Shown here: positions 5,042-23,686 of the stretch, piece after piece | Position numbering within the stretch: position 1 is the first letter of the stretch | Layout of the letters: every line of letters begins with the position of its first letter | Source of the DNA: an uncultured Anaerolineaceae bacterium | GTDB taxonomy: Bacteria > Chloroflexota > Anaerolineae > Anaerolineales > UBA4823 | DNA: 64,000 nt | Direction of reading: 5' to 3' | NCBI GenBank assembly: GCA_964463505.1 | Contig: CAYXDC010000002.1 | Coordinates: 28,452 to 92,451 of the forward strand | Program-made: the position numbers and the translations under genes | Notes under the pieces: model-generated | Databases searched by the model: none | What the model was told of the DNA's origin: nothing | Seen by the model: the letters and a program-made list of their open reading frames with translations, nothing else

Positions 5042-5833
5042 TTGCCTTTGAAGACTCAACGCAAGGTTATCGGCTCTGTCCAGCGAGCGCTTGATATCTT
5101 GAATCTGTTTGAGGCTCAGGTCGTTGAGTTGGGGACCACGGAAATCGCGCGTGCCCTCAGCTTGCCGAAAAGCACCATCGCTGGCCTGGTGCATACCCTT
5201 GAGCTAAATGGTTACCTGAACCAAAATCCCGAGACTCGCAAATATTATCTGGGTTTCAAATTGGTCGAGCGCGCCGGTGTACTACTTGGTCAGTTTGATC
5301 TGCGTAAGATCGCCGCACCGGTATTGATGGCGCTGCGAGATGATACAAATGAGAGCGTAAACCTGGCGCTGCGCGATGGTAGCTATGTGGTTTATATTGA
5401 ACGCATGCATGGGATGAACATGCTAGGTATGCGCTCGGAAATTGGCAAGCGCGAGTTAGCGCATTCCACCGCATTAGGGAAATCAATGCTGGCTTTCTCG
5501 CCGGAACATATTCTAGATGACTTCCTAAAAACCCATCCTTTCGAACCGGTTACACCGCAGACGATTACCAGTCCTGCGGTGTTTCTTATTGAAATGAACC
5601 GCACCTGCCAGCGGGGCTTTGCAGTGGATGATCAGGAGAACGAGCTCGGTGGACGATGTGTCGCTGCGCCGATCTTTGATTATACCGGTCAAGTGGTTGC
5701 AGCAGTGAGTATTTCGGTGCCCATACAGCGCTTCCCAGATAGCCGTCTGGAATTATTAGGTGAGCGGGTAAAAGCAGCCGCGGCGGAGATTTCCCGCCGC
5801 TTGGGTGCTGCTCCGCTCCGTCGGTTGCCCTAG
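5042..5833 (+). CDS. IclR-family transcriptional regulator
   Basis: N-terminal 'SVQRALDILNLF...GTTEIARALSLPKSTIAGLVHTL' HTH; C-terminal 'HSTALGKSMLA' and 'GFAVDDQENELGGRCVAAPI'. Confidence 0.95.
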   Translation: MPLKTQRKVIGSVQRALDILNLFEAQVVELGTTEIARALSLPKSTIAGLVHTLELNGYLNQNPETRKYYLGFKLVERAGVLLGQFDLRKIAAPVLMALRDDTNESVNLALRDGSYVVYIERMHGMNMLGMRSEIGKRELAHSTALGKSMLAFSPEHILDDFLKTHPFEPVTPQTITSPAVFLIEMNRTCQRGFAVDDQENELGGRCVAAPIFDYTGQVVAAVSISVPIQRFPDSRLELLGERVKAAAAEISRRLGAAPLRRLP

Positions 5834-5857
5834 ACTCTTTGCCTGGCAATCAGGAGA

Positions 5858-7366
5858 GTGAACGTGGTTGATCAGGTAGTTGATGTAATTGTGGTTGGTG
5901 GCGGAGGAAGTGGATTGGCTGCGGCCGTTAGTGCAGCCAGTTTTGGGTTGCAGGTATTGCTACTGGAGAAGCAAGCTGAGTTGGGTGGCTCCACTGGAAT
6001 TGCAGTGGGCTCTCTGACCGCCAACCGCACCCGTCTTCAGGAAAAGGCTGGGATTATTGATACCCTGGATGCGCACGCTCTGGATGCAGGGCTTTTTGCG
6101 CCGCCCCAGATCGAAGATCGCAATAACGCCGAATTGCGCCGTTGGTTCTTGAGTCACAGCGCCGAAACGCTGCATTGGTTAATGGATATGGGGTTACAGT
6201 TCTATGGACCTAACCCGGAACCCCCCAACCGATTGCCGCGTATGCACAACGTGGTTCCAGGGGCGAAGGCTTATATTGCAACATTGCAAATCCGCTTACA
6301 GCGCCTGGGTGGGAAGGTATTGACGAACGCCCCGGTGGTGGACTTAATTAGTGAAGATGGGCGGGTGACAGGTGTGGTGGTTCAGGCAGAAAGCAAAATG
6401 GAGCGCTTCTTTGCCCGGCGTGGCGTAGTTCTAGCGGCGGGAGATTACGCCAATTCACCAGCAATCATTGCCCGGTTCAAAGGTAGCCAGTATTCAGAAA
6501 TCGAAGGTATAAATCCGCGTTCTACCGGGGATGGACATCTTCTGGCAGAAGCGGCTGGCGCCAGAATGATCAACATGGATATCACCTATGGCCCCGAGCT
6601 ACGTTTTATCCCACCCTCTGGACGGACTTTTCAACAATTACTCCCGGTGCGTGGTCCATTGGTTCAATTGATGGGCGGGGTCGTACCTTATCTGCCCAAT
6701 TTTGTGATGAGGGCCATGATTCGACGCCTGCTGGTCACCTGGCAGCATCCTGAGATTGCTCTATTTGACGATGGGGCGATCCTGATCAATCAACAAGGCC
6801 AACGTTTCTGTGATGAGCTGCAAACCCCGGAGCGCGAGATCGCTATTGCCCAACAGCCCGGTAAGTCAGCTTATATTCTGTTGGATCAAGGCCTGATCCA
6901 AAAATACAATCAATGGCCTCATTTTATTTCCACTGCTCCGAAGATAGGCTATGCCTATGTCGAGGATTATCTGAAATTGCGCCCGGATGTTGCGGTTCGG
7001 GCTTCTACCTTGCAGGGTTTGGCGGAAAAGCGTCGTCTACCCTTGGTGAATTTGGAACGCTCGGTACGAGAATACAACCATCAAGCGCAGGTGAATGGAC
7101 AGCGCGGTCTGGAAGACGGTGCGTGGGTTTTGCTTGGTCCGACGAAATCTTATTTCACCACTACTGAGGGGGGCGCGGCGATCAACCAGCGTTTCGAAGT
7201 GCTTGATATGGACAATTCGCCGATACCAGGTCTGTATGCAATAGGTCAAAATGGTCTGGGGGGACAAATCTTATGGGGCCATGGCTTACACATTGCTTGG
7301 GCGATTACCAGTGGTAGATTAGTAGGCGAATATCTTGCCGGCCTGCGGGCTGCTGAAAAGACCTGA
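5858..7366 (+). CDS. FAD-dependent oxidoreductase, fumarate reductase flavoprotein/3-ketosteroid dehydrogenase (FAD_binding_2) superfamily
   Basis: VIVVGGGGSGLAAA...LLEK dinucleotide fold, GVVLAAGDY, STGDG, GAILINQQGQRFCDE, PIPGLYAIG. Confidence 0.85.
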   Translation: MNVVDQVVDVIVVGGGGSGLAAAVSAASFGLQVLLLEKQAELGGSTGIAVGSLTANRTRLQEKAGIIDTLDAHALDAGLFAPPQIEDRNNAELRRWFLSHSAETLHWLMDMGLQFYGPNPEPPNRLPRMHNVVPGAKAYIATLQIRLQRLGGKVLTNAPVVDLISEDGRVTGVVVQAESKMERFFARRGVVLAAGDYANSPAIIARFKGSQYSEIEGINPRSTGDGHLLAEAAGARMINMDITYGPELRFIPPSGRTFQQLLPVRGPLVQLMGGVVPYLPNFVMRAMIRRLLVTWQHPEIALFDDGAILINQQGQRFCDELQTPEREIAIAQQPGKSAYILLDQGLIQKYNQWPHFISTAPKIGYAYVEDYLKLRPDVAVRASTLQGLAEKRRLPLVNLERSVREYNHQAQVNGQRGLEDGAWVLLGPTKSYFTTTEGGAAINQRFEVLDMDNSPIPGLYAIGQNGLGGQILWGHGLHIAWAITSGRLVGEYLAGLRAAEKT

Positions 7367-7387
7367 TAAAAAACGGAAGGGAAACTC

Positions 7388-8524
7388 ATGATCCAAAGAC
7401 CTGAGCGCGCGGTATTGCGCCCAAAACTTGAGATAGCTTTTGAGTTCGCCCAGCAGCAGGTGCGCGAGCTGATCACCAACCACCCACAGGTTTACCCCAT
7501 GTATACGGAAGGTGGTCAATGGAAGATCGGCGGAGAGACCTGGACTAACTGGTGTGAGGGGTTTCTTCCGGGGATGATGTGGATCTTCCATCGCAGGACA
7601 GGTGATCCGGATTGGCTTGCTGCTGCTGAGCACTATTCACGCCACCTGGAGGAGCGCAAGCACGACCGCACTGTCCATGATCTCGGCTTCTTGTTTTGGT
7701 CCACCTACAAACGCTGGTTCGACTTGACCGGTGATCCGGCCATCAACGAGGTAGTTATTACGGCGGGTAAGACGATGGGATACAGGTTCAAGGAGAAAGG
7801 CCAGTATCTGCGCTCATTTGTAGCGGATGAATCCCTGTTCATCGATATTATGATGAATGTGGGGATTGTTTTTTATGCTGCCTTGCAAAGCGGCGACGCC
7901 GATCTTTTACGTAAGGCTCACCAACATACCCTCACTACCCGGCGTTATCTGGTGCGTGGGGATGGCAGCACATCCCATGAAGGTATTTTTGACCTGGAGA
8001 CAGGTGAATTTTTGCGCCAGACTACACATCAAGGGTGGCGCGGAGATTCATCCTGGGCGCGGGGCCAGTCGTGGGCATTGTATGGCTTTGGCACCTGCTA
8101 TTATCTGACTGGCGACCGGCGTTATCTGGCTACGGCACGCCAGTGCGCTGACTTTTATATCGAGCAAACCCGTTTTGATGCCGCAGCTCCCTTTGGACCC
8201 GGTGTGCCGCCCAATGATTGGTTTGCTCCAACCAGTCAGGTGGAAAGCTCAGCAGCGGCTATAGCCGCCAGCGGCTTGATGAACCTGGCTGCCATATTAC
8301 AGGACCCGTTGTATGCCAACCTCTACTTGAGCGTTGCCCTGACCATTCTGGATACACTGTGCAGCCCAGAATATTTGGGTAAATTTACCCCCGGCTGGGA
8401 GGGTATCCTCAAACATGGCTGTTACCATATTAACAAAGGACTGGGCATGGATGAAAGTGTCATGTGGGGCGAATACTTCTTTGTGGAAGCCTTGCATAAA
8501 GCCTTATCGTTGGAGAACTGGTAA
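7388..8524 (+). CDS. ugl: Unsaturated glucuronyl hydrolase, glycoside hydrolase family 88
   Basis: WCEGFLPG, HDLGF (catalytic Asp88-equivalent), FIDIMMNV (Asp149-equivalent), SWARGQSWALYGF, ESSAAAIAASG, WGEYFFVEAL. No signal peptide. Confidence 0.9.
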   Translation: MIQRPERAVLRPKLEIAFEFAQQQVRELITNHPQVYPMYTEGGQWKIGGETWTNWCEGFLPGMMWIFHRRTGDPDWLAAAEHYSRHLEERKHDRTVHDLGFLFWSTYKRWFDLTGDPAINEVVITAGKTMGYRFKEKGQYLRSFVADESLFIDIMMNVGIVFYAALQSGDADLLRKAHQHTLTTRRYLVRGDGSTSHEGIFDLETGEFLRQTTHQGWRGDSSWARGQSWALYGFGTCYYLTGDRRYLATARQCADFYIEQTRFDAAAPFGPGVPPNDWFAPTSQVESSAAAIAASGLMNLAAILQDPLYANLYLSVALTILDTLCSPEYLGKFTPGWEGILKHGCYHINKGLGMDESVMWGEYFFVEALHKALSLENW

Positions 8525-9304
8525 ATGAGCAGTCAAAGAGTCGCTATCGTGACCGGAAGCAGCCGTGGGATCGGCCGGGGAATTGCCCTGAGTCTGGCAG
8601 AGCGTGGCTGGGATATCATTATAAACTATCACAGCAATGCTGCTGCGGCTGAAGAAGTGCGCCTGGCGGTGCAGGGCTTGGGAACACATGCTTTGCTGGT
8701 GCAGGCTGATCTTGCTAACCTGGCAGACCTGAACCATATGGTGGATGCGACCCTGGAACGCTATGGACGGATTGACCTGCTGGTTAATAATGCCGGCGTG
8801 GGACCGCGCCAGCGTGTGGATTTACTCTCCACTACTGTCGAGAGCTACGACGAAGTTATGGCAACCAACCTGAGAGGCCCTTTCTTTCTTACCCAGCGCG
8901 TTGCCAATGAGATGATCGCTCAATTACAGGCCGGCAAGATCAGTACAGCCCACATTGTCAATATTGGCTCGATTAGCGCCTACACCAGCAGCCCATCGCG
9001 AGCTGAGTACTGCATCAGCAAGGCTGGCGTGGGTATGCTGACGATTGTATTCGCCGACCGCCTGGCAGAGTATGGGATTAACGTGTACGAAATCCGCCCG
9101 GGGATCATCGCCACCGACCTGACCAGCGTGGTCAAGGTGAAGTACGATCGCATGATCTTCGAGGAAGGCTTGACGCCAATCCGGCGTTGGGGCCAGCCGG
9201 AAGACGTGGCCAAAGCAGTGGTTGCAGTTGCCGAGGGCTTGCTGCCGTACTCCACCGGTGAAGTGATTAATGTGGATGGGGGTTTTCACCTCCATCGTTT
9301 GTAA
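8525..9304 (+). CDS. Short-chain dehydrogenase/reductase (PRK12745-like '3-ketoacyl-ACP reductase' subfamily)
   Basis: TGSSRGIG, VNNAG, S...YCISK catalytic motif, VYEIRPGIIATD, DGG terminus. ATG directly follows the GH88 stop codon. Confidence 0.9.
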   Translation: MSSQRVAIVTGSSRGIGRGIALSLAERGWDIIINYHSNAAAAEEVRLAVQGLGTHALLVQADLANLADLNHMVDATLERYGRIDLLVNNAGVGPRQRVDLLSTTVESYDEVMATNLRGPFFLTQRVANEMIAQLQAGKISTAHIVNIGSISAYTSSPSRAEYCISKAGVGMLTIVFADRLAEYGINVYEIRPGIIATDLTSVVKVKYDRMIFEEGLTPIRRWGQPEDVAKAVVAVAEGLLPYSTGEVINVDGGFHLHRL

Positions 9305-9326
9305 CCAATCCAATTCAAGGAGCACA

Positions 9327-10364
9327 ATGATGGCACGCGTGGTTACTTTTGGCGAGATCATGATGCGCCTCTCACCCCCTGGACAGCAGCGTTTCACACA
9401 GGCGCGTAACTTTGAGGCGATCTATGGGGGCGGAGAGTCAAATGTAGCTGTGTCGTTAGCAAATTTCGGTGTAGCAGCGGAGTTTGTCAGCCGCTTGCCC
9501 AAAAATGATATTGGGGAAGCCTGCCTGCAATTCTTGCGCCAGTATGGGGTTGGAACAAGCCACATCTTGCGCGGCGGCGAGCGGCTGGGAATATATTTCC
9601 TGGAGCATGGCGCTGTGCAGCGCGGGAGCTCGGTGATTTATGACCGGGCGGGATCATCCCTGGCAACCATCCAGCCAGGCATGGTGGCATGGGATGCGGT
9701 CTTCGAAGGCGTTGACTGGTTCCATTGGACTGGCATTACCCCGGCCATTTCTCAAGGGGCAGCAGAAGCCTGTCTCGAGGCTGTGCAGGTGGCAAAAGCC
9801 ATGGGATTGACGGTCTCCACCGATTTGAATTATCGTGCCAAGCTGTGGAAGTGGGGCCGTCCGGCCAGCGACGTCATGCAGGAGTTAGTCGCCTACTGCG
9901 ATGTGACCATCGGCAATGAAGAAGATGCTGCCAAAGTTTTTGGTATTCACGCCCCGGAAACCGACGTCACATCTGGGAAAGTTGAAGCCGACCAATATCG
10001 TTTTGTGTGCGAGCGTCTGGCAGAGCGCTTTCCTAACTTGAAAACTATCGCCATTACCCTGCGCGGCTCGCTCTCAGCCAGCCATAATACCTGGAGCGCG
10101 GTGCTCTGGCACACCGGTGAGCTGTATTTTGCCCCTACTTACGACATTACTCACATTGTAGACCGGGTAGGCGGCGGCGACAGTTTTGTAGGCGGACTGA
10201 TCTATGGCCTGTTGACCTATACCGGGGATATGGACAAAACCATTCGTTTTGCTGTAGCAGCCTCGGCGCTTAAACACACCATTTTTGGTGATTTCAACCT
10301 GGTCAGTGTTGCCGAAGTTGAAAAGTTGATGGCGGGCGACGCCTCCGGGCGCGTCAGCCGCTAA
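9327..10364 (+). CDS. kdgK: 2-keto-3-deoxygluconate kinase (PfkB family)
   Basis: TFGEIMMRLS, GGGESNVA, DLNYRAKLW, DRVGGGDSF. SD AAGGAG before ATG 9327; adjacent to the KDPG aldolase gene. Confidence 0.9.
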   Translation: MMARVVTFGEIMMRLSPPGQQRFTQARNFEAIYGGGESNVAVSLANFGVAAEFVSRLPKNDIGEACLQFLRQYGVGTSHILRGGERLGIYFLEHGAVQRGSSVIYDRAGSSLATIQPGMVAWDAVFEGVDWFHWTGITPAISQGAAEACLEAVQVAKAMGLTVSTDLNYRAKLWKWGRPASDVMQELVAYCDVTIGNEEDAAKVFGIHAPETDVTSGKVEADQYRFVCERLAERFPNLKTIAITLRGSLSASHNTWSAVLWHTGELYFAPTYDITHIVDRVGGGDSFVGGLIYGLLTYTGDMDKTIRFAVAASALKHTIFGDFNLVSVAEVEKLMAGDASGRVSR

Positions 10365-10389
10365 ACCAAACCACCATAAGGAGTGCTGG

Positions 10390-11076
10390 ATGGCGAAATA
10401 CAGTCGCCTCAATGTATTGAATAGCATGGTTGAAACAGGCATGGTGCCGGTTTTTTATCATGCTGATATTGAAGTCGCTACAAAAATCGTGCGGGCGCTG
10501 GCCGAAGCCGGGGTGCGTTGTTTTGAATTTACCAACCGTGGCGACCAGGCACACCTGGTGTTTCAGGAGCTGTACCGGCGTTTTGCCGGTGATAGGCGCG
10601 TGATCCTGGGAGCAGGTTCGATCCTCGATCCGGCTACGGCTGCCTTGTATATCCAGCTGGGCGCCAATTTTATCGTTGGACCGGTGCTTAACCCTGAAGT
10701 GGCTAAGGTCTGCAACCGGCGCAAGATCGCTTATTCTCCGGGCTGCGGCAGCCTGAGTGAAGTTTCTGCCGCTGAAGAGCTGGGGGTTGAAATTTGTAAA
10801 GTTTTCCCCGGCAAAGAAGTTGGCGGACCAGGTTTTGTAGAAGCTTTGCGTGGACCGATGCCCTGGACCTATATTATGCCAACGGGCGGTGTGGACCCCA
10901 GCGAAGAAAGCATTAACGCCTGGATCAAAGCAGGCGTGGCCTGTGTGGGTATGGGCAGCAAGCTGGTACGCAAGGATTTGATTGCAGCAGGCGATTACGC
11001 TGAAATGACGCGTCTGGCAGGACTGACCCTGGGCTGGATACAGACTGCCCGCCAACAACATCCCATATTCTGGTAA
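10390..11076 (+). CDS. eda: 2-dehydro-3-deoxy-phosphogluconate / 4-hydroxy-2-oxoglutarate aldolase
   Basis: [22 protein letters not shown], Schiff-base Lys in CKVFPG, MPTGGV. Confidence 0.92.
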
Positions 11077-11095
11077 TAACCTGAAAGGAGTGAGC

Positions 11096-12556
11096 ATGGC
11101 TAAGCCCTATTTACGTGTGGCGCGCATGAAAACTGCGCAGGATTTCCGTGATTATGTGGCTGAACTGGGAATTTACCTGCCCCTGGATGAGAAGGTTGAA
11201 CCGGCGCCAGATGGCGCCCTGGCTCAGACGTATACCCTGAAAACTGGGCGGGTCATCGGCAACCGTTTTAGCATCCTCCCCATGGAAGGTTGGGATGGCA
11301 CGCCAGATGGCTTGCCAACGGAATATACCCTGCGGCGCTGGACAAATTTCGGGCGCAGTGGGGCCAAATTGATCTGGGGTGGCGAAGCAGTTGCGGTGCG
11401 CCATGATGGGCGCGCCAACCCCAACCAGCTGATGATCAACCAGCATACCCTGGGCGGGCTGGCAGATCTGCGCCAGGCGCTGGTTGGCGCCCACCAGGCT
11501 CAGATGGGGAGCACAGACGACTTGCTGGTTGGTTTGCAGCTCACCCACTCTGGACGATTTTCACGCCCCAATGAAAAAAAACGCCTCGAGCCGCAAATCC
11601 TCTACCACCACCCGTTGCTTGAGCAGATCTATAAAATTGACCCCAATTTGCCGGTGATGACAGACGCTCAAATTGAAGATCTTATCGCCGACTATGTGCG
11701 CGCCGCCGGTCAAGCCCACGCCTTGGGTTTTGATTTTGTTGATCTAAAACATTGTCATGGCTACCTGGGGCACGAATTCCTGTCGGCGCGCTCTCGACCT
11801 GGCCCATATGGGGGCAGTTTTGAAAACCGTACACGATTCCTGCGGGAGCTGGTGGCGGGTATCCGCCGTGATGTACCCGGGTTGTTGCTGGGCGTGCGCT
11901 TTAGCGCCTATGATTTCCCGCCCTTCCGCCCAGGACCGGATGGGGTAGGTGTCGTGCAGGATTATCGGGATATTAATGGCAGGTACCCATTTGCCTTTGG
12001 CGGCGATCAAAATGATACGCTCACGATCGATCATAGCGAGCCGCGCCGCTTCCTCGAGCTGCTCCAGTCTTTGGAGATTGAATTGGTGAACCTCTCGGCT
12101 GGCAGCCCGTATTACAACCCGCATATGCAGCGCCCGGCTTATTTTCCACCTTCGGATGGTTACCAACCTCCGGAAGACCCGCTGGTCAGTGTCGCCCGGC
12201 AAATCAATAATGCGGCAACTTTGAAGGCTTCGTTCCCAGACCTGGCGATCGTGGGCACCGGATACAGCTATCTGCAAGACTGGCTGCCGCATGTAGGACA
12301 ATACGCCGTGCGTACAGGAATGGTCGATTTTGTTGGTTTGGGGCGCATGGCTCTGGCTTACCCGGAAATGCCAGCCGATGTGTTGGCCGGCAAGCCGCTG
12401 GACCGCAAGCGCATTTGCCGCACATTTAGCGATTGTACGACTGCGCCGCGCAATGGGATGATTTCAGGTTGTTTCCCACTGGACGATTTCTACAAAGCCC
12501 TGCCAGAGGCCGAACAGGTCAAGCAGGTTAAGGCTGAACAAAAACTGGCCAGTTAA
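11096..12556 (+). CDS. NADH:flavin oxidoreductase (Old Yellow Enzyme-like FMN TIM barrel)
   Basis: [69 protein letters not shown] 11096 after AAAGGAG. Confidence 0.88.
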
Positions 12557-12571
12557 CCATGGAGGTCTAGA

Positions 12572-14188
12572 TTGCGCGTTGTTGATTTCTCTACTGCCGT
12601 CCAGCTGGTGCAGGATGGTGATACGATCCTGATTGGTGGTTCCGGCGGCGGGCATGCCGTGCCAGAGAAGCTGATCATGAGCCTGGCAGAACGCTTTCAC
12701 AGCACTGCGAGCCCGCGTGGGATTACGCTACTGCACCCCGTGGGCTTGGGAGATATGGCTTCGCAGGGCGTTGACCGTCTGGCGCATCCAGAGCTATTGA
12801 AGCGCATTATCACTGGCGCTTTGGTCAATACCCCGGCGATCCAGGAGATGGCTCGCCAGGATCAGGTGGAAGCCTATACGCTGCCGCAAGGCTCGCTATC
12901 CCAGCTCATGCGCGAGATGGCTGCCGGGCGTCCGGGCTTGATCTCACATGTCGGTTTGCACACCTTCGTCGATCCGCGCTACGGCGGAGGCCGGCAAAGC
13001 CCATCGGCTCGGGAAGCCCTGGTGGAGCTGGTCGAAATTGCCGGGCGGGAGTGGCTGTTTTATAAGCCAATGCATGTAGATATAGCTTTTTTGCGCGGCA
13101 CCACTGCCGATGAAGATGGCAATATCACGATGGAGCAAGAAGCCATATTTGGCGAGATGCTTTCCATGGCCCAGGCTGCCCGGCGCAGCGGGGCTGTAGT
13201 GATCGTCCAGGTGGCTCGGCTGGCCCAGCGTGGCAGCCTGCCACCCAAGCAGGTGAAGATTCCTGGTATGTTGGTTGATCTTGTAGTCGTGGACCCCGAA
13301 CAGCGCCAGACATACGTGACCCAATACAGCCCGGCTTATGCAGGTGAGCTGCGTGTACCGCTCAACGCGATTCCGGCGCTGCCATTTGATCCTCGCAAAG
13401 TGATTGCCCGGCGCGCGGCCCTGGAATTGTTTCCCGGCGCCGTCTGCAATCTAGGCGCAGGCGTATCCACGGGGATCGCCAATGTCGCCGCAGAAGAAGG
13501 TTTTTTGCAGGATATTGTGCTCACCAACGAACAGGGGCTGATTGGCGGGGCGCCTGCCTCGGGCGTGGATGCTGGGGCAGCCATTAACTATGATTCCATT
13601 ATAGACCAACCTTACCAGTTCGATTTTTACGATGGAGGCGGACTCGACCTGGCTTTCCTGTCTTTCGCACAGGTCGATCCGCAGGGCAGTGTTAATGTCA
13701 GCCGCTTCGGTGAGAAAGTGATCGGTGTGGGTGGATTCCAGAATATTGCCCAGAATGCCAAGACGATCGTGTTTAGCGGTACTTTTACGGCCGGACGGCA
13801 GGAGATCACCTGGGAAAATGGACAGATGATAATCCGGGCAGACGGGACGCATCAGAAGTTTGTTGCTCAGCTCGATCAGGTCTCGTATAGCGGCGCACAC
13901 GCCCAGTCCATCGGCCAACGTGCCTTGTATATCACCGAGCGGGCGGTCTTCCAGCGTGGCCCCCAGGGTTTGGAATTGATTGAGCTGGCTGCGGGTGTGG
14001 ACCTGGAACGCGATGTTTTGGCAAAGATGGGTTTCCGCCCGCAAATAGCCGCGCATGTCAAAATCATGGATCAGCGCCTGTTTCACCCGCGCGGGATGGA
14101 ATTTGCAGCCGAGTTACGCGCCCGGCCGCGCTTGAATTTGCCAGAACGCTTGCGGAGCGCGGACTGGCTGGAAGGAGTGACACCATGA
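12572..14188 (+). CDS. Family I acyl-CoA:acetate/3-ketoacid CoA-transferase (fused alpha/beta, YdiF/Pct-like)
   Basis: GTTADEDGNITME, CNLGAGV, catalytic Glu in LTNEQG, FDFYDGGGLDLAFL, GVGGFQNI, ITERAVF. Confidence 0.92.
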   Translation: MRVVDFSTAVQLVQDGDTILIGGSGGGHAVPEKLIMSLAERFHSTASPRGITLLHPVGLGDMASQGVDRLAHPELLKRIITGALVNTPAIQEMARQDQVEAYTLPQGSLSQLMREMAAGRPGLISHVGLHTFVDPRYGGGRQSPSAREALVELVEIAGREWLFYKPMHVDIAFLRGTTADEDGNITMEQEAIFGEMLSMAQAARRSGAVVIVQVARLAQRGSLPPKQVKIPGMLVDLVVVDPEQRQTYVTQYSPAYAGELRVPLNAIPALPFDPRKVIARRAALELFPGAVCNLGAGVSTGIANVAAEEGFLQDIVLTNEQGLIGGAPASGVDAGAAINYDSIIDQPYQFDFYDGGGLDLAFLSFAQVDPQGSVNVSRFGEKVIGVGGFQNIAQNAKTIVFSGTFTAGRQEITWENGQMIIRADGTHQKFVAQLDQVSYSGAHAQSIGQRALYITERAVFQRGPQGLELIELAAGVDLERDVLAKMGFRPQIAAHVKIMDQRLFHPRGMEFAAELRARPRLNLPERLRSADWLEGVTP

Positions 14189-15000
14189 GCGATAGTCCAG
14201 GGACATCGGATCGTATCGAGTGGGATGCCATCGAAGTGACACTACCGCGCCCGGGCGTCGCTCTGATGAGCATTGTCTCTCAGCCTTTGGGCGTGCTGCG
14301 GCATGCTGTCAAGCGCGCCATGCTGGCCCGCCTGGCAGAGTTGGAAGGCGACCGGCGCGTGCGCTGTGTGGTGTTGACCGGGGTTGGGAAGGCTTTTTCG
14401 GTTGGGTCTGACATCCGCGATTTTAGCGTGGAGATTGGCTGGTTGTTAGAAAATGATTATGTCGAGGCCGGGCTGAATGCAGCCATTGAAAACTCGCCAC
14501 TACCAATCATTGCTGCACTTAACGGGCATGCTTTAGGGGGTGGGGCTGTACTGGCCCTGGCGTGTGATATTCGAGTGGCTGGCGAATCCTGCAAGATGGG
14601 TTTCCCAGAAGTGAAAGTTGGGGCGTTTGCATCTGGTAGCGGTACGCAGCGCTTGCCGCGCCTGGTAGGGCGCGGGCGGGCATTGGATTTACTGCTGACC
14701 GGGCGCAGCATTACAGCTGCTGAGGCCCTGGCTTTTGGACTGGTGGAATATGTTGTCCCAGACGAGGAGCTGCTGGACTTCAGCCTCACCCTGGCAGAGG
14801 GGATCGCTGCCAATGCCGCCGGGGCAGTCAGCGCCAGCAAGCGTTGTGTGAATGAAGGCTTGCGTCTGGGATGGGAGGCTGGCCTGGAGTTGGAGCGTGA
14901 ACTGCGCATCCAGACAGGCAGGGGGCGAGACGCGCAAGAAGGTCGCCAGGCATTTATTGAAAAACGCCCTGCGCGCTTTAACCAGGAACCGGAGGCCTAG
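14185..15000 (+). CDS. Enoyl-CoA hydratase/isomerase (crotonase) family protein
   Basis: KAFSVGSDI oxyanion loop, IAALNGHALGGG, FPEVKVG, GTQRLPRLVG, AFIEKRPA. Confidence 0.92.
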   Translation: MSDSPGTSDRIEWDAIEVTLPRPGVALMSIVSQPLGVLRHAVKRAMLARLAELEGDRRVRCVVLTGVGKAFSVGSDIRDFSVEIGWLLENDYVEAGLNAAIENSPLPIIAALNGHALGGGAVLALACDIRVAGESCKMGFPEVKVGAFASGSGTQRLPRLVGRGRALDLLLTGRSITAAEALAFGLVEYVVPDEELLDFSLTLAEGIAANAAGAVSASKRCVNEGLRLGWEAGLELERELRIQTGRGRDAQEGRQAFIEKRPARFNQEPEA

Positions 15001-15003
15001 CGC

Positions 15004-15936
15004 ATGCGCCTGGCGATGTACAACCAGCGAGGGCAAGCGCGCGTGGGGGCGCTGCTCAAAACCCGGACTGTTCAGCGCGCCCAGCTAGTAGATCTATTGC
15101 GTGCTGCACGCCTGTTACGGTATGTGAAGCCGTTGCCAAATTCAATGGACCAGCTGCTTGCCGGGGGTGCTTTATATCTGGATTCTGTGCGCCAATTCAT
15201 GGCAAATATTGATAACTTGCCAGATAGCGAGCTCAGAGCACTGGCAGAGGCTGATGCGCTATTGGATCTTGCTAAAGCTGACTTGCTCCCGCCTGTGTCA
15301 AAGCCGGGCAAGATAATCTGTGTGGGGTTGAATTATCCGATACCTGGCGGCGTTGCCCAACCTGCGCAAGTTTATCCGGTGATATTTCTAAAGCCTACCA
15401 GTACACTGCTGGGTTCTGGTGGGCGCGTGATCATGCCGCACACCAGCCGTGAAATTGCTGGGGAAACTGAGCTGGTGGTCGTAATCGGTCGTTACGGCAG
15501 GCATATTTCTGTCGAGCAGGCCCTCGAATATGTCGCCGGTTATACCCTGGCGATGGATATCGGGGCGCGTGATTGGGAAGCGCGCACGACACAGTGGACT
15601 TCTGGTAAGCTGGGTGATACTTTTACACCCCTGGGTCCAATCCTGCTCACCGCGGACGAAATACCCGATCCTTCAGGAGTTGAGTTATCCCTCACGATAA
15701 ACGATAGCATTTCATTACGCGGCCGTACCAGCCAGATGATTTTCGGGATTCCGGCGCTGATCGCCTATCTATCAGAAATCGCGACCTTGCAGCCCGGAGA
15801 TATCATCCTGACCGGTAGCCCCAAAGGCGTGGATGACCAGTCGCGTGGGCCGGTGTTGTTGAGCGCGGGCGAGCGCTTGCTCGCCACAGCCAGCGGCCTG
15901 GGTCAGTTGGTCGTGGATGTGGTTCAGGAGGAGTAA
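15004..15936 (+). CDS. Fumarylacetoacetate hydrolase-family protein
   Basis: KIICVGLNY, FLKPTS, GETELVVVIG, DIGARDW, GKLGDTFTPLGP, LQPGDIILTGSP. Confidence 0.9.
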   Translation: MRLAMYNQRGQARVGALLKTRTVQRAQLVDLLRAARLLRYVKPLPNSMDQLLAGGALYLDSVRQFMANIDNLPDSELRALAEADALLDLAKADLLPPVSKPGKIICVGLNYPIPGGVAQPAQVYPVIFLKPTSTLLGSGGRVIMPHTSREIAGETELVVVIGRYGRHISVEQALEYVAGYTLAMDIGARDWEARTTQWTSGKLGDTFTPLGPILLTADEIPDPSGVELSLTINDSISLRGRTSQMIFGIPALIAYLSEIATLQPGDIILTGSPKGVDDQSRGPVLLSAGERLLATASGLGQLVVDVVQEE

Positions 15937-15940
15937 GCGT

Positions 15941-16987
15941 ATGTCAAAAACGCGCCTAATGGCGATCGTTACCGCTCCCGGGAAAGTGGAGATATTAGAA
16001 CGGCCTCTGCCAGAACCCGGCCCGACCGAAGTGCAGCTGCGCGTGCGTGCTGTGACCCTGTGTGGTGGGGACATGCATATCTTTGCCGGTAAGCACCCGT
16101 CTGTGTCGCTGCCAGTCCCCATTGGGCATGAGATTGCCGGGGACGTGGTTGCGTTAGGAGAGAAAGTGACCCGCTTGCAGATCGGGGACCGGGTGACGGT
16201 TGAGCCGGTAATCGCATGCGGAAAGTGCTATTTCTGCCAGCGTGGTCAATATCATTTTTGCACCTCCATCAGCTTTCAATATCGCCGCGGACAGGGTGGG
16301 GTGACCACAGATTTTATCGTGGATGAGCGTTGGGCGCACCGCTTACCTGCCGCGGCTACATATACCGAAGGAGCTTTGTTGGAGCCGTTGGCAGTAGCAG
16401 TGCATGCAGTCCAAAAAGCTGATCTCCGCCTGGGGCAGAGCGTGGCGATTTTTGGCGCTGGGGCAATTGGCTTGTTGGTGCTGCAACTGGCGCAGCAGGC
16501 CGGCGCCGGGCAGGTGCTGATCACGGATGTACGTCCAGCGCGTCTGGAGATGGCTCGCCAACTGGGTGCCAGCGCAGCATTGAACAGCCTGGATGGTGAT
16601 GTGCTGGCAGAGATCGCAGCTCTCACAGATGGCCTGGGTGTAGACCGAGCCTTTGAAGCGGTTGGTTTACAGGTTACCCTGGTCCAGGCATTGAAAGCGC
16701 TGCGCAAGGGCGGGCGGGCTGTACTGGTTGGGCTGTTTGAACAGGATGAGCTAACAATCCCAGCCAATATTTTCGTGCACCGTGAGATCGAGCTGTCTGG
16801 GTCACAAGGTTATTGCTGGGATTTTCAAACCGCCATCCAATTCCTGGCGCTGGGAAAGGTGGATTTGCAGCGCCTGATAACGCATGTATACCCCATGGAT
16901 CAAGTTCAGGCGGCGTTTGATACCCTGGCGGATCGTCAGTCTGGAGCAGTGAAGGTTGTCATCCAGATAGGTGACAATAGTTCTTGA
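15941..16987 (+). CDS. Zn-dependent medium-chain (sorbitol/L-threonine-like) dehydrogenase
   Basis: CGGDMH, GHE, structural Zn CGKCYFCQRGQYHFC, GAGAIG. ATG 15941 after GGAGGAG. Confidence 0.92.
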   Translation: MSKTRLMAIVTAPGKVEILERPLPEPGPTEVQLRVRAVTLCGGDMHIFAGKHPSVSLPVPIGHEIAGDVVALGEKVTRLQIGDRVTVEPVIACGKCYFCQRGQYHFCTSISFQYRRGQGGVTTDFIVDERWAHRLPAAATYTEGALLEPLAVAVHAVQKADLRLGQSVAIFGAGAIGLLVLQLAQQAGAGQVLITDVRPARLEMARQLGASAALNSLDGDVLAEIAALTDGLGVDRAFEAVGLQVTLVQALKALRKGGRAVLVGLFEQDELTIPANIFVHREIELSGSQGYCWDFQTAIQFLALGKVDLQRLITHVYPMDQVQAAFDTLADRQSGAVKVVIQIGDNSS

Positions 16988-17040
16988 CAGATGTCTCTGG
17001 TTTTTTATATAATTCGTTAGCGCTAACGGCAACGCTAACG
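16984..17040 (+). promoter_or_regulatory. Consensus sigma70 promoter (TTGACA-N18-TATAAT) followed by a LacI-type operator CGTTAGCGCTAACG
   Basis: TTGACA 16984-16989, TATAAT 17008-17013, perfect 14-bp palindrome 17015-17028, extra half-site CGCTAACG 17033-17040. Confidence 0.8.
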
Positions 17041-17137
17041 GAAATTGTAAAATGGCACCTGGGTTTGCCATGCACTGCCGGTTTAGACCACAACAAGTTT
17101 TCCAATCCTGAAAGCATCTGTATAATAAGGACCACGG

Positions 17138-18208: not shown

Positions 18209-19345
18209 GTGAGCCGGATTGCGCGTGTGGAAGTTGGTCGCTATGATTATGTCTTTGCCGGGGCATTTAAATTCTTCAAACCCGGAAAAGATGGAGTGGT
18301 CCGCCGTCCAACCGTGTTTGTCCGCCTGACCGATGAGGCTGGCTTGCAGGGTTGGGGACAGGCTGTGCCAGTGCCCACCTGGACTTACGAGACGGTTGAG
18401 ACTGTGGAAAGCACCTTAACTAACTACCTGGCTGAGGCAGTGCTGGGCGCGGACCCAGATGACCTTTCCGAGGTCCACCGGCGCATGGACTATGCTATCC
18501 GTCCGGGGTTCTCAACCGGACAGCCGATCGCCAAAGCTGCCCTGGACCTGGCTTGCTACGATCTGGTTGGGAAGCGGGAAGGCGTTCCCGTCGCCAATCT
18601 CTTGGGTGGAGCCCGCCGCGATGCAATTCGCTTGAATTGGACTTTAAATGCTCTCACATTGGCGGAGGCTGAAATCCAATTGGAAAAAGCACGCATCGGC
18701 GGTTTTGGCCACTTCAACATCAAAGTTGGTCCACCACAAACACCGGAATATGACTTGGAGTTGGTGCGCCTTGTGCGTCGGGAATTCCCCGATACATTCC
18801 TGTGGGTGGATGCCAATACCGGCTATCGCCTGGAGACCGCTCTTGACATGCTGCCAAAATTTGCCGCAATGGGCGTTCAGGCAATTGAATCTCCCCTACC
18901 TCCTAACCAATTACGTGGCTATCAGGCACTAAAGAAAAATGGCGCGGTGCCCATCTATATGGATGAAGGTATTATTTCACCAGTAGAGACGGCCGAGTTC
19001 ATCGCTTTGGAGATGTTCGACGGAGTGACCTTGAAGCATGCGCGGTCGGGTGGCTTGTGGCAAGCTCAACAGATTATTCGCCTGGTTAAAGAGGCCGGGT
19101 TGCAATTGCTTGGCTCTGGCCTCACCGATCCGGATTTATCATTGGCAGCCGCGTTGCATTTGTATGCCTGGGCAGATATCGACCGTCCATGCGCTTTAAA
19201 TGGACCACAGTTTATTGGCGAGACCCTGGTAAAGGATGGCTACAGTATTCAAGGTGACTTGATCTTCCTTCCCACCGGGCCTGGTCTGGGGATTGAATTG
19301 GACGAGAAAGCCCATTCGGTCCTGCGCGTTGCAGCGGAAGCCTAA
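18209..19345 (+). CDS. Enolase-superfamily enzyme, muconate cycloisomerase (MLE) subgroup
   Basis: GWGQA, AALDLACYDLVGK, FNIKVG, VDAN, IESP, MDEG, LKHARSGG, PTGPGLG. Confidence 0.88.
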   Translation: MSRIARVEVGRYDYVFAGAFKFFKPGKDGVVRRPTVFVRLTDEAGLQGWGQAVPVPTWTYETVETVESTLTNYLAEAVLGADPDDLSEVHRRMDYAIRPGFSTGQPIAKAALDLACYDLVGKREGVPVANLLGGARRDAIRLNWTLNALTLAEAEIQLEKARIGGFGHFNIKVGPPQTPEYDLELVRLVRREFPDTFLWVDANTGYRLETALDMLPKFAAMGVQAIESPLPPNQLRGYQALKKNGAVPIYMDEGIISPVETAEFIALEMFDGVTLKHARSGGLWQAQQIIRLVKEAGLQLLGSGLTDPDLSLAAALHLYAWADIDRPCALNGPQFIGETLVKDGYSIQGDLIFLPTGPGLGIELDEKAHSVLRVAAEA

Positions 19346-19354
19346 AGGTTAACC

Positions 19355-20821: not shown

Positions 20822-20839
20822 AAGAAAAGGATTAAACCC

Positions 20840-21667
20840 ATGGAAAAACCTGTAAATGAAACTTCTCAATTGAAAAAGAGTGAATTTATGGAAAATCTCA
20901 AGAACCGTTTGATGCCTTTCATTGGTATCTTTGGATTCCTGCTGATCTGGGAACTGGCAGTAATTGTGTTCGATATAAAAAGTTATTTGCTCCCCAGGCC
21001 GACCATGATTGTGCAAGAAGTCATTGTTCGGTTTGATTCTTTGATGAGTCATGGCGCGACAACGGCGTATGAAACCTTGCTTGGTTATGCCCTGGCGATC
21101 GCAATCGCTGTTCCTCTGGCAATAGGGATTACCTCATCGGCGGCTTTTGACCGCTTTATTATGCCGATCCTGCTGTTTTTCCAGGTGGTTCCAAAAATTG
21201 CAATTGCGCCCTTGTTCCTGATCTGGTTCGGTTTTGGCACGATGCCAAAAGTGATGGTTGCTTTCTTGATCTCGTTCTTTCCTATTGTGATTGATACTGC
21301 TGTAGGATTGCGCTCAATCTCTTCGGAGATGATTGACCTGGCGCGTTCCATGGGCGCTACCAAATCACAAATATTCCTACGCTTCCGCTTACCCACCAGC
21401 CTACCCTATCTATTCAGTGGTTTGAAGGTTGCCGCTACACTGGCAGTGGTAGGTGCAGTGGTGGGTGAATTCGTCGGAGCAGACCGTGGTCTGGGGTATT
21501 TATTACTCGTATCTAATTCAAATCTGAATACCGCCTTGACTTTTGCCACCATCGTTGTCCTTACGGCTCAAGGATTGTTTCTATTCTATGTAATTGAGAT
21601 CCTGGAACGTTTCATGATCCCATGGCACGTTTCTCGCCGGACGACCCCTGAACATGCGACGATGTAA
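20840..21667 (+). CDS. ABC transporter permease, NitT/TauT/SsuC family
   Basis: FQVVPKIAIAPLFLIWFGFG, EAA-like 'IDLARSMGATKSQIFLRFRLPTSLPYLFSGLK', GEFVGADRGLG. Confidence 0.92.
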   Translation: MEKPVNETSQLKKSEFMENLKNRLMPFIGIFGFLLIWELAVIVFDIKSYLLPRPTMIVQEVIVRFDSLMSHGATTAYETLLGYALAIAIAVPLAIGITSSAAFDRFIMPILLFFQVVPKIAIAPLFLIWFGFGTMPKVMVAFLISFFPIVIDTAVGLRSISSEMIDLARSMGATKSQIFLRFRLPTSLPYLFSGLKVAATLAVVGAVVGEFVGADRGLGYLLLVSNSNLNTALTFATIVVLTAQGLFLFYVIEILERFMIPWHVSRRTTPEHATM

Positions 21668-21776
21668 GGCAAAATTTGGTGGAAGGAGGTGATTTTGCGA
21701 CAATCGAATTACATAGTTGTCTGTCTTAGGTCAAAACCATATACAAAATACTGATTACCTTGAGGAGACTCTGCAC

Positions 21777-22835
21777 ATGAAGAAAGTTAATGTCCTTCGT
21801 TTGTTCGCGGCGCTCATGATCGTGGCGCTGATCGCGGGCTGCGCTCCGCAGCCTGCTGCTACCCCAGTAGCAACTGAGGAACCAGCGGAAGAGTTGGTAA
21901 AAGTCGACTTTCGCCTGAATTGGACTCTTTATGGCGAACATGCCCCGTTCTTCCTGGGTGTTGATAAAGGCTTTTACTTAGAAGAGGGCTTGGATGTAAC
22001 AATCTTGGAAGGCAGTGGTTCAGCCACAGTTGTGAAGCTGATTGGCAATGGCACCAATGTGATTGGTTATGCTGACTCAGCAACCATGCTGCGCGGCATC
22101 AGCGCCGGCGTGCCGGTGAAGGCGGTGGCAGTCACCTTCCAGTCTAGTCCGATGGCCTTCATCTATCGCCAGGATGCTGCCCGACCGACCACCATCGAAG
22201 AAGTAAAAGGTACTAAGATCGCCATCACCGCAGGTGATGCCAGTCTGGCGATCCTGGAAGCCTGTCTGGGTCGCAATAACATGACTATGGAAGACGTTCA
22301 ATTAATCCAGGTCTCGAACCCGGCTTCTAAAGAAACCGCAGTGCTAGAAGGCCAGACGGATGCGTTCCTCGGATATTTTGTTGATCAACCGATGCGTATG
22401 GAGAAGGTTACCGGCGTAGATATGGGTTGGTCTAAACTGGTTGATCTTTGCGATGTAAATACCCTGAGCAGCGCCATCATCGCCAATAACTTCTATGCCG
22501 AACAGAACCCGGAAGTAATTGCCAAGTTCGTGCGCGCTTCTCAACGCGCCTGGCAATACACCTTGGATCACCCCGAAGAAGCGGCTGAAATCTTCTCCCA
22601 GCACGCTGAGGCTTTTGATGTTCCTCTGTCGTTGGCCGAAATCGAAGGCTCTTTGACCTTGATGCACACTGCCAACAGTGAAGGGAAGCCGATTGGTTGG
22701 TCTGCTCCGGAAGATTGGACTGCCACCCAGGACGTTCTGGCTCAATACGCTGGATTCAAGCCTGAAGAGGATATCAACGTTTTCTTCACCAATGAGTTCA
22801 TCTCCGAACCTCCCTATTTGCCTCCAGCGGAATAA
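21777..22835 (+). CDS. ABC substrate-binding lipoprotein, NMT1/THI5-like (NitT/TauT family)
   Basis: Lipobox LIAGC after a basic + hydrophobic signal; FRLNWTLYGEHAPFFLGVDKGFYLEEGLDV; EGSGS. ATG 21777 after GAGGAG. Confidence 0.9.
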   Translation: MKKVNVLRLFAALMIVALIAGCAPQPAATPVATEEPAEELVKVDFRLNWTLYGEHAPFFLGVDKGFYLEEGLDVTILEGSGSATVVKLIGNGTNVIGYADSATMLRGISAGVPVKAVAVTFQSSPMAFIYRQDAARPTTIEEVKGTKIAITAGDASLAILEACLGRNNMTMEDVQLIQVSNPASKETAVLEGQTDAFLGYFVDQPMRMEKVTGVDMGWSKLVDLCDVNTLSSAIIANNFYAEQNPEVIAKFVRASQRAWQYTLDHPEEAAEIFSQHAEAFDVPLSLAEIEGSLTLMHTANSEGKPIGWSAPEDWTATQDVLAQYAGFKPEEDINVFFTNEFISEPPYLPPAE

Positions 22836-22854
22836 GGATTTCATAACCTGTTAC

Positions 22855-22891
22855 GGTTCTCCCCATAGGCCGAAATCCTGTGGGGAGAACC
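22855..22891 (+). promoter_or_regulatory. 15-bp stem-loop between the SBP and ATPase genes (mRNA stability/attenuation element)
   Basis: GGTTCTCCCCATAGG (22855-22869) pairs with CCTGTGGGGAGAACC (22877-22891) with one G-U pair. No U-tract follows. Confidence 0.7.
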
Positions 22892-22909
22892 CTCCAAGAG
22901 AAGATCAAG

Positions 22910-23686
22910 ATGACTGAACCCTATATTCGCTTGCAAAATGTCGAGAAAGTCTACCAGACGAAAGACAACCCAACCCTAGCGGTAGAGAATGCTGACTTTG
23001 ACATTCAAAAATCTCAGTTCATAGCTATTGTGGGTCCCAGCGGCTGTGGCAAGACCACCATTCTTAAAATGTTGGCTGGGTTGGTTCCCTATACTTCCGG
23101 GTTGATTACGATCGACGGAAATAAAGTTAACCGGCCACAGACGGATCTCGGTATTATCTTCCAGGATTCAGTTCTGCTGGACTGGCGAGATGTGCTCTCG
23201 AATGTTATGTTGCAGATTGAAATCCGCGGGCTGGATCAAAACATTTATGCACCGCGGGCACATGAACTGCTGAAAGCGGTTGGGCTGGATGGATTTGAAA
23301 CCAAGAAACCCTATGAGCTTTCGGGTGGAATGAGACAACGCGTAGCAATCTGCCGAGCGCTGGTCCATGATCCGCCGCTTCTATTGATGGATGAGCCATT
23401 CGGTGCGTTGGATGCCCTAACCCGTGAGCAGATTTCGATGGATATTCAGCACCTGTGGATGGAAAAGCGCAAAACGGCCTTACTGATCACGCATAGTATC
23501 CCCGAGGCGGTCCTCCTGGCTGATCGGGTGATCGTCATGAGTCCGCACCCCGGACGTATTGTTGAAATCATTGATATTGATCTACCGCGCCCACGCCGCC
23601 TGGACCAATTACCAGAACGGTTTAATGACTACACCGGTCACATTCGGAAGATTTTCCAGGCTTCAGGTGTTTTAGCGCTGGATTAA
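22910..23686 (+). CDS. ABC transporter ATP-binding protein, NitT/TauT family
   Basis: GPSGCGKT, LSGGMRQR, LLMDEPFGALDALTRE, ITHSIPEAVLLADRV. Confidence 0.93.
   Translation: MTEPYIRLQNVEKVYQTKDNPTLAVENADFDIQKSQFIAIVGPSGCGKTTILKMLAGLVPYTSGLITIDGNKVNRPQTDLGIIFQDSVLLDWRDVLSNVMLQIEIRGLDQNIYAPRAHELLKAVGLDGFETKKPYELSGGMRQRVAICRALVHDPPLLLMDEPFGALDALTREQISMDIQHLWMEKRKTALLITHSIPEAVLLADRVIVMSPHPGRIVEIIDIDLPRPRRLDQLPERFNDYTGHIRKIFQASGVLALD

Follow-up and report, generated by a model that had tools for sequence, protein, structure and literature searches.

A 64,000-nt stretch of contig CAYXDC010000002.1 from an uncultured Anaerolineaceae bacterium (Chloroflexota), hereafter the window, carries a block of five genes directly behind an eda gene. 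They encode a long flavoprotein resembling the old yellow enzymes (OYE-like), a fused CoA-transferase (CoAT), a crotonase variant (ECH), a variant of the FAH family and a Zn-dependent dehydrogenase (Zn-ADH). In uncultured Chloroflexota the block forms a conserved catabolic unit that is as yet uncharacterised. We read it, tentatively and with a probability of about 0.4, as the distal half of an IclR-headed operon (5042-16987 on the + strand; coordinates are window positions unless another locus or contig is named) that would process an imported acidic sugar derivative in two branches. A compound of the unsaturated-uronate type is the most likely substrate. Our observations concern gene content, packing, synteny, catalytic-residue status and fold.

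To follow the block across genomes, we used look-ups of three OYE-like homologues, 80 species genomes with an OYE-like gene, and 80 metagenomic loci found via the CoAT. Neighborhood conservation, which the first-pass annotation of this DNA had proposed as a check, is borne out within the lineage: about 12 related Chloroflexota loci repeat the whole order GH88-SDR-KdgK-Eda-OYE-CoAT-ECH-FAH-ZnADH at 60-79% identity, FAH excepted (L001, L003, L004, L005, L006, L121, L124-L126, L162, L197), including six of the CoAT-found metagenomic loci (L121, L124, L125, L126, L162, L197). Two of the three homologue contigs follow the window from IclR through Zn-ADH and onward to LacI, URO-D and MR_MLE genes. 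At the third (L002), GH88-SDR-PfkB-Eda-OYE is followed at 11496-15870 by a LarA_N (2-hydroxyacid racemase-like) gene, an FGGY kinase gene and a 6-phosphogluconate-dehydrogenase-like gene, which replace CoAT-ECH-FAH-ZnADH; this hints at an aldonate-like 2-hydroxy acid as the product after the OYE-like step. Among the 80 species genomes, CoAT, ECH, FAH and Zn-ADH genes stand beside the OYE-like gene only in the closest Chloroflexota. When the 120 best OYE-like and the 120 best CoAT homologues are compared, at least 28 agree in the length of their longest contig, which points to shared contigs. Within the window lineage SDR-(PfkB-Eda)-OYE always precedes the CoA genes, separated by a few bases at each gap, and in most cases GH88 does so too. 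The IclR gene keeps its position in L001, L003, L004 and L197. Zn-ADH, which the first-pass annotation had left outside its four-gene module, is conserved after the FAH gene (L001, L003, L006, L124, L126, L197) and should therefore be added to the block. FAH is the least conserved gene, at 37-45% identity among orthologous loci. The window-type locus L125 (12281-15619) has no FAH gene; behind its crotonase gene stand Zn-ADH paralogues, three in tandem, a gene of the creatininase family, another PfkB-Eda pair and a 2-hydroxyacid dehydrogenase gene.

More than 573 species genomes encode the OYE-like protein, at 57-69% identity; they belong to about six phyla (Chloroflexota, Acidobacteriota, Planctomycetota, Bacteroidota, Latescibacterota, Gemmatimonadota) and include the cultured Algoriphagus, Emticicia, Fibrivirga and Planctomicrobium. 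Its family comprises 606 clusters at 50% identity (E < 1e-30), and the gene is held by 5 of 401 sampled Chloroflexota genomes. Across 80 loci, the gene most frequently found beside it encodes an SDR (34), followed by GH88-like (27), Gfo/Idh/MocA (24), PfkB (12), DUF993 (11), SSF symporter (8) and Eda (7) genes; xylose-isomerase-like barrels, VOC and cupin proteins are further neighbors, and most neighborhoods contain no CoA-transferase. The tie to GH88-like and SDR genes spans Bacteroidota, Planctomycetota and Chloroflexota, and that to PfkB-Eda is seen in L002, L041 and L062. Compact sets exist in which CoA genes are absent, such as SSF-GH88-OYE-SDR in Cytophagales and Gfo/Idh/MocA-OYE-GH88-SDR-Eda-PfkB in a planctomycete, so the OYE-like protein appears to be a sugar-acid enzyme in its own right. 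The first-pass annotation had taken the flavoenzyme to be foreign to sugar-acid routes; this does not hold for a family encoded overwhelmingly beside GH88-like, SDR, Gfo/Idh/MocA and xylose-isomerase-like genes, and not beside genes of aromatic or bile-acid catabolism. Our literature search found no paper tying an OYE to GH88 or to 2-keto-3-deoxygluconate (KDG), and a 2025 survey of isomerase-reductase clusters for DHU mentions neither flavoenzymes nor Chloroflexota. The ESM Atlas returned only generic 'NADH:flavin oxidoreductase' clusters for the protein, and no characterised member of the family emerged from the searches made here.

In many loci a DUF993 gene stands immediately upstream of either the OYE-like or the CoAT gene (L040, L052, L059, L062, L067, L070, L073-L075, L080 and L082; L145-L148). 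A DUF993 structure has been solved and is uncharacterised (PDB 4dnh); the literature search found no paper mentioning this family, and no DUF993 gene was found in the window's own genome.

The OYE-like protein is an atypical member of its family. The Pfam Oxidored_FMN model (PF00724) scores well above its cut-off of 27 bits and covers only residues 56-275, and the AlphaFold model (pLDDT 96.3) is a full TIM barrel whose nearest folds are YqjM, TsER and XenA (Foldseek target-normalised TM-score, TMt, ~0.8). Like these thermophilic-like OYEs, the protein has the barrel fold and the PM motif and keeps both the second His and the proton-donating Tyr; unlike them, it is about 130 residues longer, has Lys for the first His and Glu for Cys25/Thr, and carries a Cys motif toward its C-terminus. 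Aligned to XenA, its K218-H-C-H221-G-Y223 motif places Lys218 at His178 and retains His181 as His221 and Tyr183 as Tyr223, and Glu64 occupies the position of Cys25. The protein accordingly lacks the His-His or His-Asn substrate-binding pair and keeps the Tyr proton donor of the G-Y-L motif (Tyr223). Across the family the conservation of Lys218 is 90% or more, and fifteen motif positions are identical in all 92 relatives compared, whatever their neighbors. Such invariance speaks for a single reaction on a single type of substrate, and thus against an obligatory CoA thioester; with an active site that is the same in every context, the OYE-like enzyme probably acts on a free acid.

The C-terminal Cys motif recalls E. 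coli FadH and the clostridial 2-enoate reductases, in which an FMN- and 4Fe-4S-binding barrel is likewise followed by a Cys motif. The window clade has the pattern C441-x5-C447-x11-C459, a three-Cys remnant of the Fe-S motif with Phe444 at the second Cys position, and so lacks the four-Cys cluster of those enzymes; nor does the 486-aa protein contain their FAD/NADPH domain, as no Pyr_redox match was found by Pfam. More distant members show CxxCxxC-x11-C, and one of them (P0189) aligns to residues 5-359 of the 2,4-dienoyl-CoA reductase 1ps9, a stretch that we take to cover that enzyme's cluster motif. Several distant members are fused to further domains (P0185, P0188, P0210, P0241, P0264, P0181, P0178), namely Fer4_20 plus Pyr_redox_2 (GltD-like), FAD_binding_2 (P0241 and P0264), a xylose-isomerase-like barrel or a HAD hydrolase; those with NAD(P)H, FAD and Fe-S input domains extend the likeness to FadH.

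To place the window protein within its family, a FastTree phylogeny was built from 92 OYE-like proteins. All CoAT-linked OYE-like proteins, from both of the gene orders in which they occur, fall into a single 24-row clade (17 rows CoAT-linked; local support 96), a result to be read with the provisos that the second locus set was picked via the CoAT, that related sequences share labels and that the tree is rooted at its midpoint. Proteins recruited via the CoAT were nevertheless free to land anywhere in the tree, yet they grouped together. This single clade in two gene orders suggests that OYE-CoAT-crotonase is a real evolutionary unit. Separate clades hold the GH88-SDR type of Bacteroidota, the Gfo type of Acidobacteriota and the DUF993 type. 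Two members of the window's own sub-clade, L002 and L007, keep GH88-SDR-OYE and have no CoA genes, and the OYE-like protein is therefore independent of the CoAT.

Within the CoA half of the block, the CoAT matches YdiF (2ahu) over residues 5-512 against 17-525 (3e-131, 442 bits), and its Glu320 (LTNEQGLIGG) aligns to YdiF Glu333 (LTVETGPIGG), the catalytic Glu that forms the CoA thioester. It thus shares the fused alpha-beta chain of about 530 aa and the catalytic Glu with the short-chain acyl-CoA:acetate CoA-transferases YdiF (E. coli), Pct (Clostridium propionicum) and FadX, but falls short of the NCBIfam FadX equivalog (415.2 bits against a cut-off of 750). The JGI label of its orthologues is propionate CoA-transferase. 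The crotonase clears the ECH_1 threshold of 27 bits with ease but is not a two-Glu hydratase: in alignment to 3kqf, Val replaces the first catalytic Glu (GGGAVL against GGGxE) and the second (PE) is kept. Single-Glu crotonases are established isomerases, and the window crotonase resembles the Delta3-Delta2-enoyl-CoA isomerases in retaining only the second Glu, although overall it is closest to the hydratases 3kqf, 5jbx and EchA8 and no isomerase model matched. The isomerisation step proposed in the first-pass annotation fits such an enzyme. GGGAVL is found in all window-type orthologues, while the crotonases of the two other CoAT architectures described below keep GGGxE.

The FAH protein departs from its family in a comparable way. 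Its best solved relatives are HpcE (1gtt) and L-2,4-diketo-3-deoxyrhamnonate hydrolase (8gsr). FAH enzymes are thus established in sugar-acid routes, and the earlier view of this gene as a stranger there can be set aside. Relative to 8gsr and to HpcE/FAHD1, the window protein has the same fold, the metal triad ExE...D and the Lys (GETEL, AMDIG and SGK aligned to 8gsr), but NYPIP stands where NYxxH is expected, with Pro aligned to the 8gsr His. From the FAHD1 literature we take this His to be the water-activating member of the dyad. Of 7 window-type FAH orthologues, 6 have lost this residue, and the FAH proteins of the other architectures keep it. The protein also misses the NCBIfam equivalog for 2,4-didehydro-3-deoxy-L-rhamnonate hydrolase (164 bits, cut-off 500). 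Because the hydrolase His is missing, the C-C cleavage previously assigned to this gene is doubtful. Zn-ADH lies below the cut-offs of the NCBIfam threonine-, inosose- and idonate-dehydrogenase models.

The contexts of the CoAT were counted at 26 loci whose flanks reach 3.5 kb or more in each direction, taking neighbors within 6 kb of orthologues that are 55-82% identical. Crotonase genes were found near it in 22 loci, an NMT1-type importer in 14, SDR in 10, OYE-like in 9, PfkB/Eda in 2 and GH88 in 1. Three architectures can be distinguished: the window type; MR_MLE, NMT1-ABC, DUF993, CoAT, TetR, OYE, 3-hydroxyisobutyrate-DH-like, ECH; and LacI/SDR, CoAT, ketopantoate-reductase-like, NMT1-ABC, MaoC, ECH. 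Shikimate-DH-like, MaoC and ketopantoate-reductase-like genes are neighbors in the non-window architectures. Window-type loci often open with a LIV-type ABC importer (L125/L197), and a TctC protein occurs in the second-type locus L145; the importers near the CoAT are of acid or amino-acid type, not of sugar type. The NMT1-type importers near the CoAT are up to 72% identical to that of the window, and MR_MLE orthologues of 56-58% identity lie a few kb from it in L129, L144, L146 and L147. More generally, the MR_MLE, NMT1 importer and MetE-like genes of the operons flanking the window's unit (18209-23686 and 2978-4003) have orthologues of 53-72% identity beside CoAT-OYE-ECH in another order (L137, L144, L146-L148), and both operons of this island may serve one pathway. 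A tie between the CoA module and GH88 or kdg genes, on which the first-pass annotation had made its case depend, holds within the window lineage, where the order is kept, and is usually missing outside it, where 1-2 of 26 well-flanked loci show it and acid importers appear instead.

The upstream half of the operon resembles the canonical route of UGL/GH88, KduI/DhuI, KduD/DhuD, KdgK and KdgA/Eda in combining a GH88-like protein, an SDR, a PfkB kinase and a KDPG aldolase, but differs in that no KduI or RpiB/DhuI was matched, the SDR falls short of the KduD model and five genes are appended. The GH88-like protein matches the unsaturated glucuronyl hydrolase (UGL) 1vd5 over its full length (1e-43), with both catalytic Asp residues (Asp88 and Asp149) conserved. 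In G012 C76 and G094 C1 the OYE-adjacent GH88-like genes score 24-30 bits with Pfam GH88, and canonical GH88 genes elsewhere in the same genomes score 370-390 bits; by these scores the OYE-linked proteins form a separate subfamily. The SDR reaches 165.4 bits with the KduD equivalog TIGR01832 (cut-off 338.85), the PfkB protein scores best among NCBIfam models with one for the kinase portion of a KHG/KDPG aldolase-kinase fusion (522 bits, under the cut-off), and all NCBIfam matches of the FAD_binding_2 flavoprotein are below cut-off. The window's own genome gave a match to neither KduI (PF04962) nor RpiB/DhuI (PF02502); as it is 88.6% complete, this does not prove them absent. In the five-gene sets L002 and L041 the OYE-like gene stands where the isomerase gene would be; we know of no FMN-type barrel that acts as a ketol-isomerase. 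The genome's only match to a heparinase II/III-type lyase lies in a 686-aa frame on contig C8 (22025-22720; L199), together with two crotonase paralogues on the same contig, and this lyase could supply unsaturated uronides.

In the pathway that we propose, the order of the steps, the substrates and the redox direction are inferred. The GH88-like enzyme would hydrate the vinyl ether, and the SDR and the OYE-like flavoprotein would then act on the free keto or enone sugar acid. Lys218 and His221 may hold the carboxylate or alpha-keto acid while Tyr223 donates a proton. KdgK and Eda would convert the 2-keto-3-deoxy product to pyruvate and a triose phosphate. In the other branch, the YdiF/Pct-type CoAT would transfer CoA from acetyl- or succinyl-CoA to a short co-product, a hydroxy or enoic acid, a double bond would be shifted, not hydrated, by the single-Glu crotonase, and the His-less FAH might decarboxylate, tautomerise or dehydrate instead of hydrolysing; Zn-ADH would take an alcohol/carbonyl step. 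That the CoA block is linked to the GH88 products is plausible; the aglycone or ring-derived acid named in the first-pass annotation would be one candidate substrate. A more far-reaching reading is rather unlikely, if still conceivable: that the OYE-like protein with its K-H-C-H-G-Y motif and three Cys represents an undescribed step of keto-deoxy or unsaturated sugar-acid catabolism in more than 500 species of about six phyla, either converting the GH88 product independently of KduI/DhuI or reducing an enone derived from the sugar, and that in Anaerolineae-type Chloroflexota it feeds a CoA-dependent uronate side branch with a single-Glu crotonase and a His-less FAH.

Several observations weigh against the two-branch operon. 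GH88 is missing in several window-type loci (L006, L124, L126, L197), and neither the LIV-type importers of window-type loci nor the NMT1-type importer of the window's next operon is a known uronide carrier. The OYE-like and KduI genes show no complementarity: a KduI-family match, in some cases perhaps IolB, is present in 5 of 10 OYE-like genomes, so that a replacement of KduI by the OYE-like protein is conjectural. The co-transcription of the block is deduced from spacing only. Finally, action of the OYE-like protein on CoA thioesters would explain the CoAT-linked OYE clade equally well.

This last point leads to a rather unlikely alternative, the best of those considered and the strong form of the first-pass model, with a single CoA thioester as the substrate of all four enzymes. 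Here the CoAT would activate an unsaturated acid from GH88 or the flavoprotein; reduction would fall to the OYE-like protein as a FadH-like enoyl- or dienoyl-CoA reductase, isomerisation or hydration to the crotonase and cleavage to the FAH protein. The CoAT-adjacent OYE-like proteins do form one clade in two independent orders, the window type and DUF993-CoAT-TetR-OYE-3HIBDH-ECH; the distant four-Cys members align to 1ps9 through its Cys region, and some carry, as fusions, GltD-like modules for NAD(P)H/Fe-S input, which suits a reductase. The active-site residues are, however, identical in about 70 relatives with no CoA-transferase nearby, the CoAT is absent from L002 and L007 within the window's own OYE clade, and the FAH protein lacks the hydrolase His. 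Moreover, the GH88 product is no obvious precursor of an enoyl-CoA, as in UGL chemistry the hydration destroys the enoate.

It is more doubtful again that a small organic acid, imported on its own by LIV- or NMT1-type ABC systems and unrelated to GH88, is what the CoA genes act on, two acid-catabolic routes having been pooled under one regulator. The company of the CoAT speaks for this: the 26-locus counts, in which crotonase and NMT1-type genes are common and PfkB/Eda and GH88 rare; the LIV-type and TctC importers; the shikimate-DH-like, MaoC and ketopantoate-reductase-like neighbors of the other architectures; and the orthologues of the window's NMT1, MR_MLE and MetE-like genes beside the CoAT elsewhere. 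What counts against it is the invariable position of the CoA genes behind SDR-(PfkB-Eda)-OYE in the window lineage, as packing with gaps of a few bases usually denotes one pathway.

Two further explanations fare worse. It is most unlikely that the OYE-like protein leaves the reduction of the substrate to the FAD_binding_2 flavoprotein (5858-7366) and serves it as an NAD(P)H-oxidising electron-input module, in the manner of the NADH:fumarate, acrylate and cinnamate reductases, split or fused. There is precedent in Klebsiella FRD and Vibrio harveyi ARD, where an OYE-like domain oxidises NADH and an FAD_binding_2 domain reduces a 2-enoate (bioRxiv 10.1101/2022.01.20.477176), and P0241 and P0264 carry just such a fusion. 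However, the FAD_binding_2 gene is an optional member, absent from most window-type loci and from almost all of the other loci with an OYE-like gene (L001 and L004 have orthologues; none were found in L003, L005, L125 or L197), and no FMN_bind domain is present. In L124 a different FAD_binding_2 protein of 681 aa is encoded after Zn-ADH. The fusions were also considered as a Rosetta-stone link between the two proteins, which was rejected: the window flavoprotein is just 23-28% identical to the fused ones, in its N-terminal part. That unrelated genes gathered behind eda by chance is barely credible, for although the parts differ in evolutionary range and FAH is poorly conserved, the order is kept in about 12 loci, a second architecture also joins OYE, CoAT and ECH, and the genes are separated by a few bases or overlap.

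Two known CoA-dependent routes were also considered for the block. The acrylate pathway from lactate to propionate (Pct, dehydratase and reductase) was rejected, since the crotonase lacks a catalytic Glu and, to our knowledge, a crotonase cannot dehydrate a 2-hydroxyacyl-CoA. A 3-hydroxypropionate route of CoA activation, crotonase dehydration and reduction by a medium-chain dehydrogenase/reductase (MDR) is weakened by the missing crotonase Glu.

If the two-branch operon is correct, the catabolism of unsaturated uronates (of glycosaminoglycan, pectin, ulvan or alginate type) in abundant uncultured Chloroflexota, Cytophagales, Planctomycetota and Acidobacteriota would use a flavoenzyme step, to which one lineage would add a CoA-thioester branch; neither step is on current pathway maps. 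Metabolic reconstructions would then misread these genes as generic 'NADH:flavin oxidoreductase' and 'propionate CoA-transferase'. As a large and highly conserved family with no characterised member in our searches, the OYE-like proteins make a good target for enzymology. Should the proposal fail, the block would still be a clean case of catabolic operons built from sub-modules of different evolutionary range.

The features of the operon and its surroundings are collected in the table. As the first-pass annotation stated, four genes of the families it named follow directly behind eda, each confirmed by Pfam, and they are embedded in a sugar-acid operon, being tightly packed with kdgK-eda in one probable transcription unit. 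The 486-aa form of the OYE-like protein in the databases agrees with a start at ATG 11096, 19 nt beyond the eda stop (11076) and preceded by AGGAG. The CoAT TTG (12572) follows the OYE-like stop (12556) after 15 nt, with GGAGG upstream. CoAT and ECH overlap in an ATGA at 14185-14188 (gap -4 nt), the FAH ATG (15004) lies 3 nt beyond the ECH stop (15000), and the likely Zn-ADH ATG (15941) lies 4 nt beyond the FAH stop (15936), with AGGAGGAG upstream. By our reading of the sequence, each gene of the block is preceded by a ribosome-binding site. The translational coupling claimed earlier for the four genes thus survives for CoAT/ECH alone in its overlap form, as the others are merely close-spaced with ribosome-binding sites of their own.

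Table. Features of the IclR-headed operon and its downstream neighbors (window positions).
Feature	Coordinates	Strand	Remarks
IclR-family regulator	5042..5833	+	first gene of probable operon; Pfam HTH_IclR + IclR_C
FAD_binding_2 flavoprotein (fumarate-reductase/KstD superfamily)	5858..7366	+	Pfam 151.8 bits; optional member
Divergent GH88-like unsaturated glucuronyl hydrolase (putative vinyl-ether hydratase)	7388..8524	+	Pfam only 36.8 bits
SDR	8525..9304	+	Pfam adh_short_C2
PfkB-family KDG-type kinase	9270..10364	+	Pfam PfkB
KHG/KDPG aldolase (Eda)	10390..11076	+	NCBIfam PRK07114 323.9 bits (cut-off 275, passed)
Long OYE-like TIM-barrel flavoprotein, 486 aa	11096..12556	+	Pfam Oxidored_FMN 78.5 bits
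Fused family I CoA-transferase (CoAT), YdiF/Pct/FadX type	12572..14188	+	Pfam CoA_trans 121.7 bits
Crotonase-fold protein (ECH)	14185..15000	+	Pfam ECH_1 173.3 bits
FAH-family protein	15004..15936	+	Pfam FAA_hydrolase 191 bits
Zn-dependent MDR dehydrogenase (Zn-ADH), last gene of block	15941..16987	+	Pfam ADH_N + ADH_zinc_N
Consensus promoter + palindromic operator	16984..17040	+	start of next (LacI-type) operon, 3' end of unit
MR_MLE enolase-superfamily enzyme, adjacent operon	18209..19345	+	Pfam
NMT1/THI5-type ABC importer (permease, binding protein, ATPase), adjacent operon	20840..23686	+	Pfam

In agreement with the earlier claim, no terminator-like site was found at any junction when 5042-16987 was scanned: the few matches on the + strand are all intragenic, and the total of 10 is under the shuffle mean of 13. 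Promoter-like sites lie at 4918-4987, ahead of the IclR gene. At the other end, a 12/12 promoter match, a perfect TTGACA-N18-TATAAT, occupies 16984-17013 and overlaps the Zn-ADH stop; the palindrome CGTTAGCGCTAACG and one more half-site come after it, and a second promoter-like site (17099-17126) precedes the URO-D gene. Judged by spacing, 5042-16987 is probably one transcription unit, running from the IclR gene by way of kdgK-eda to Zn-ADH. The Zn-ADH open reading frame opens at ATG 15917, within the FAH gene, and ATG 15941 is the likelier start, giving the orthologue length of 344-346 aa. An antisense frame of 247 aa (10354-11097, - strand) spans the entire eda gene and is probably spurious.

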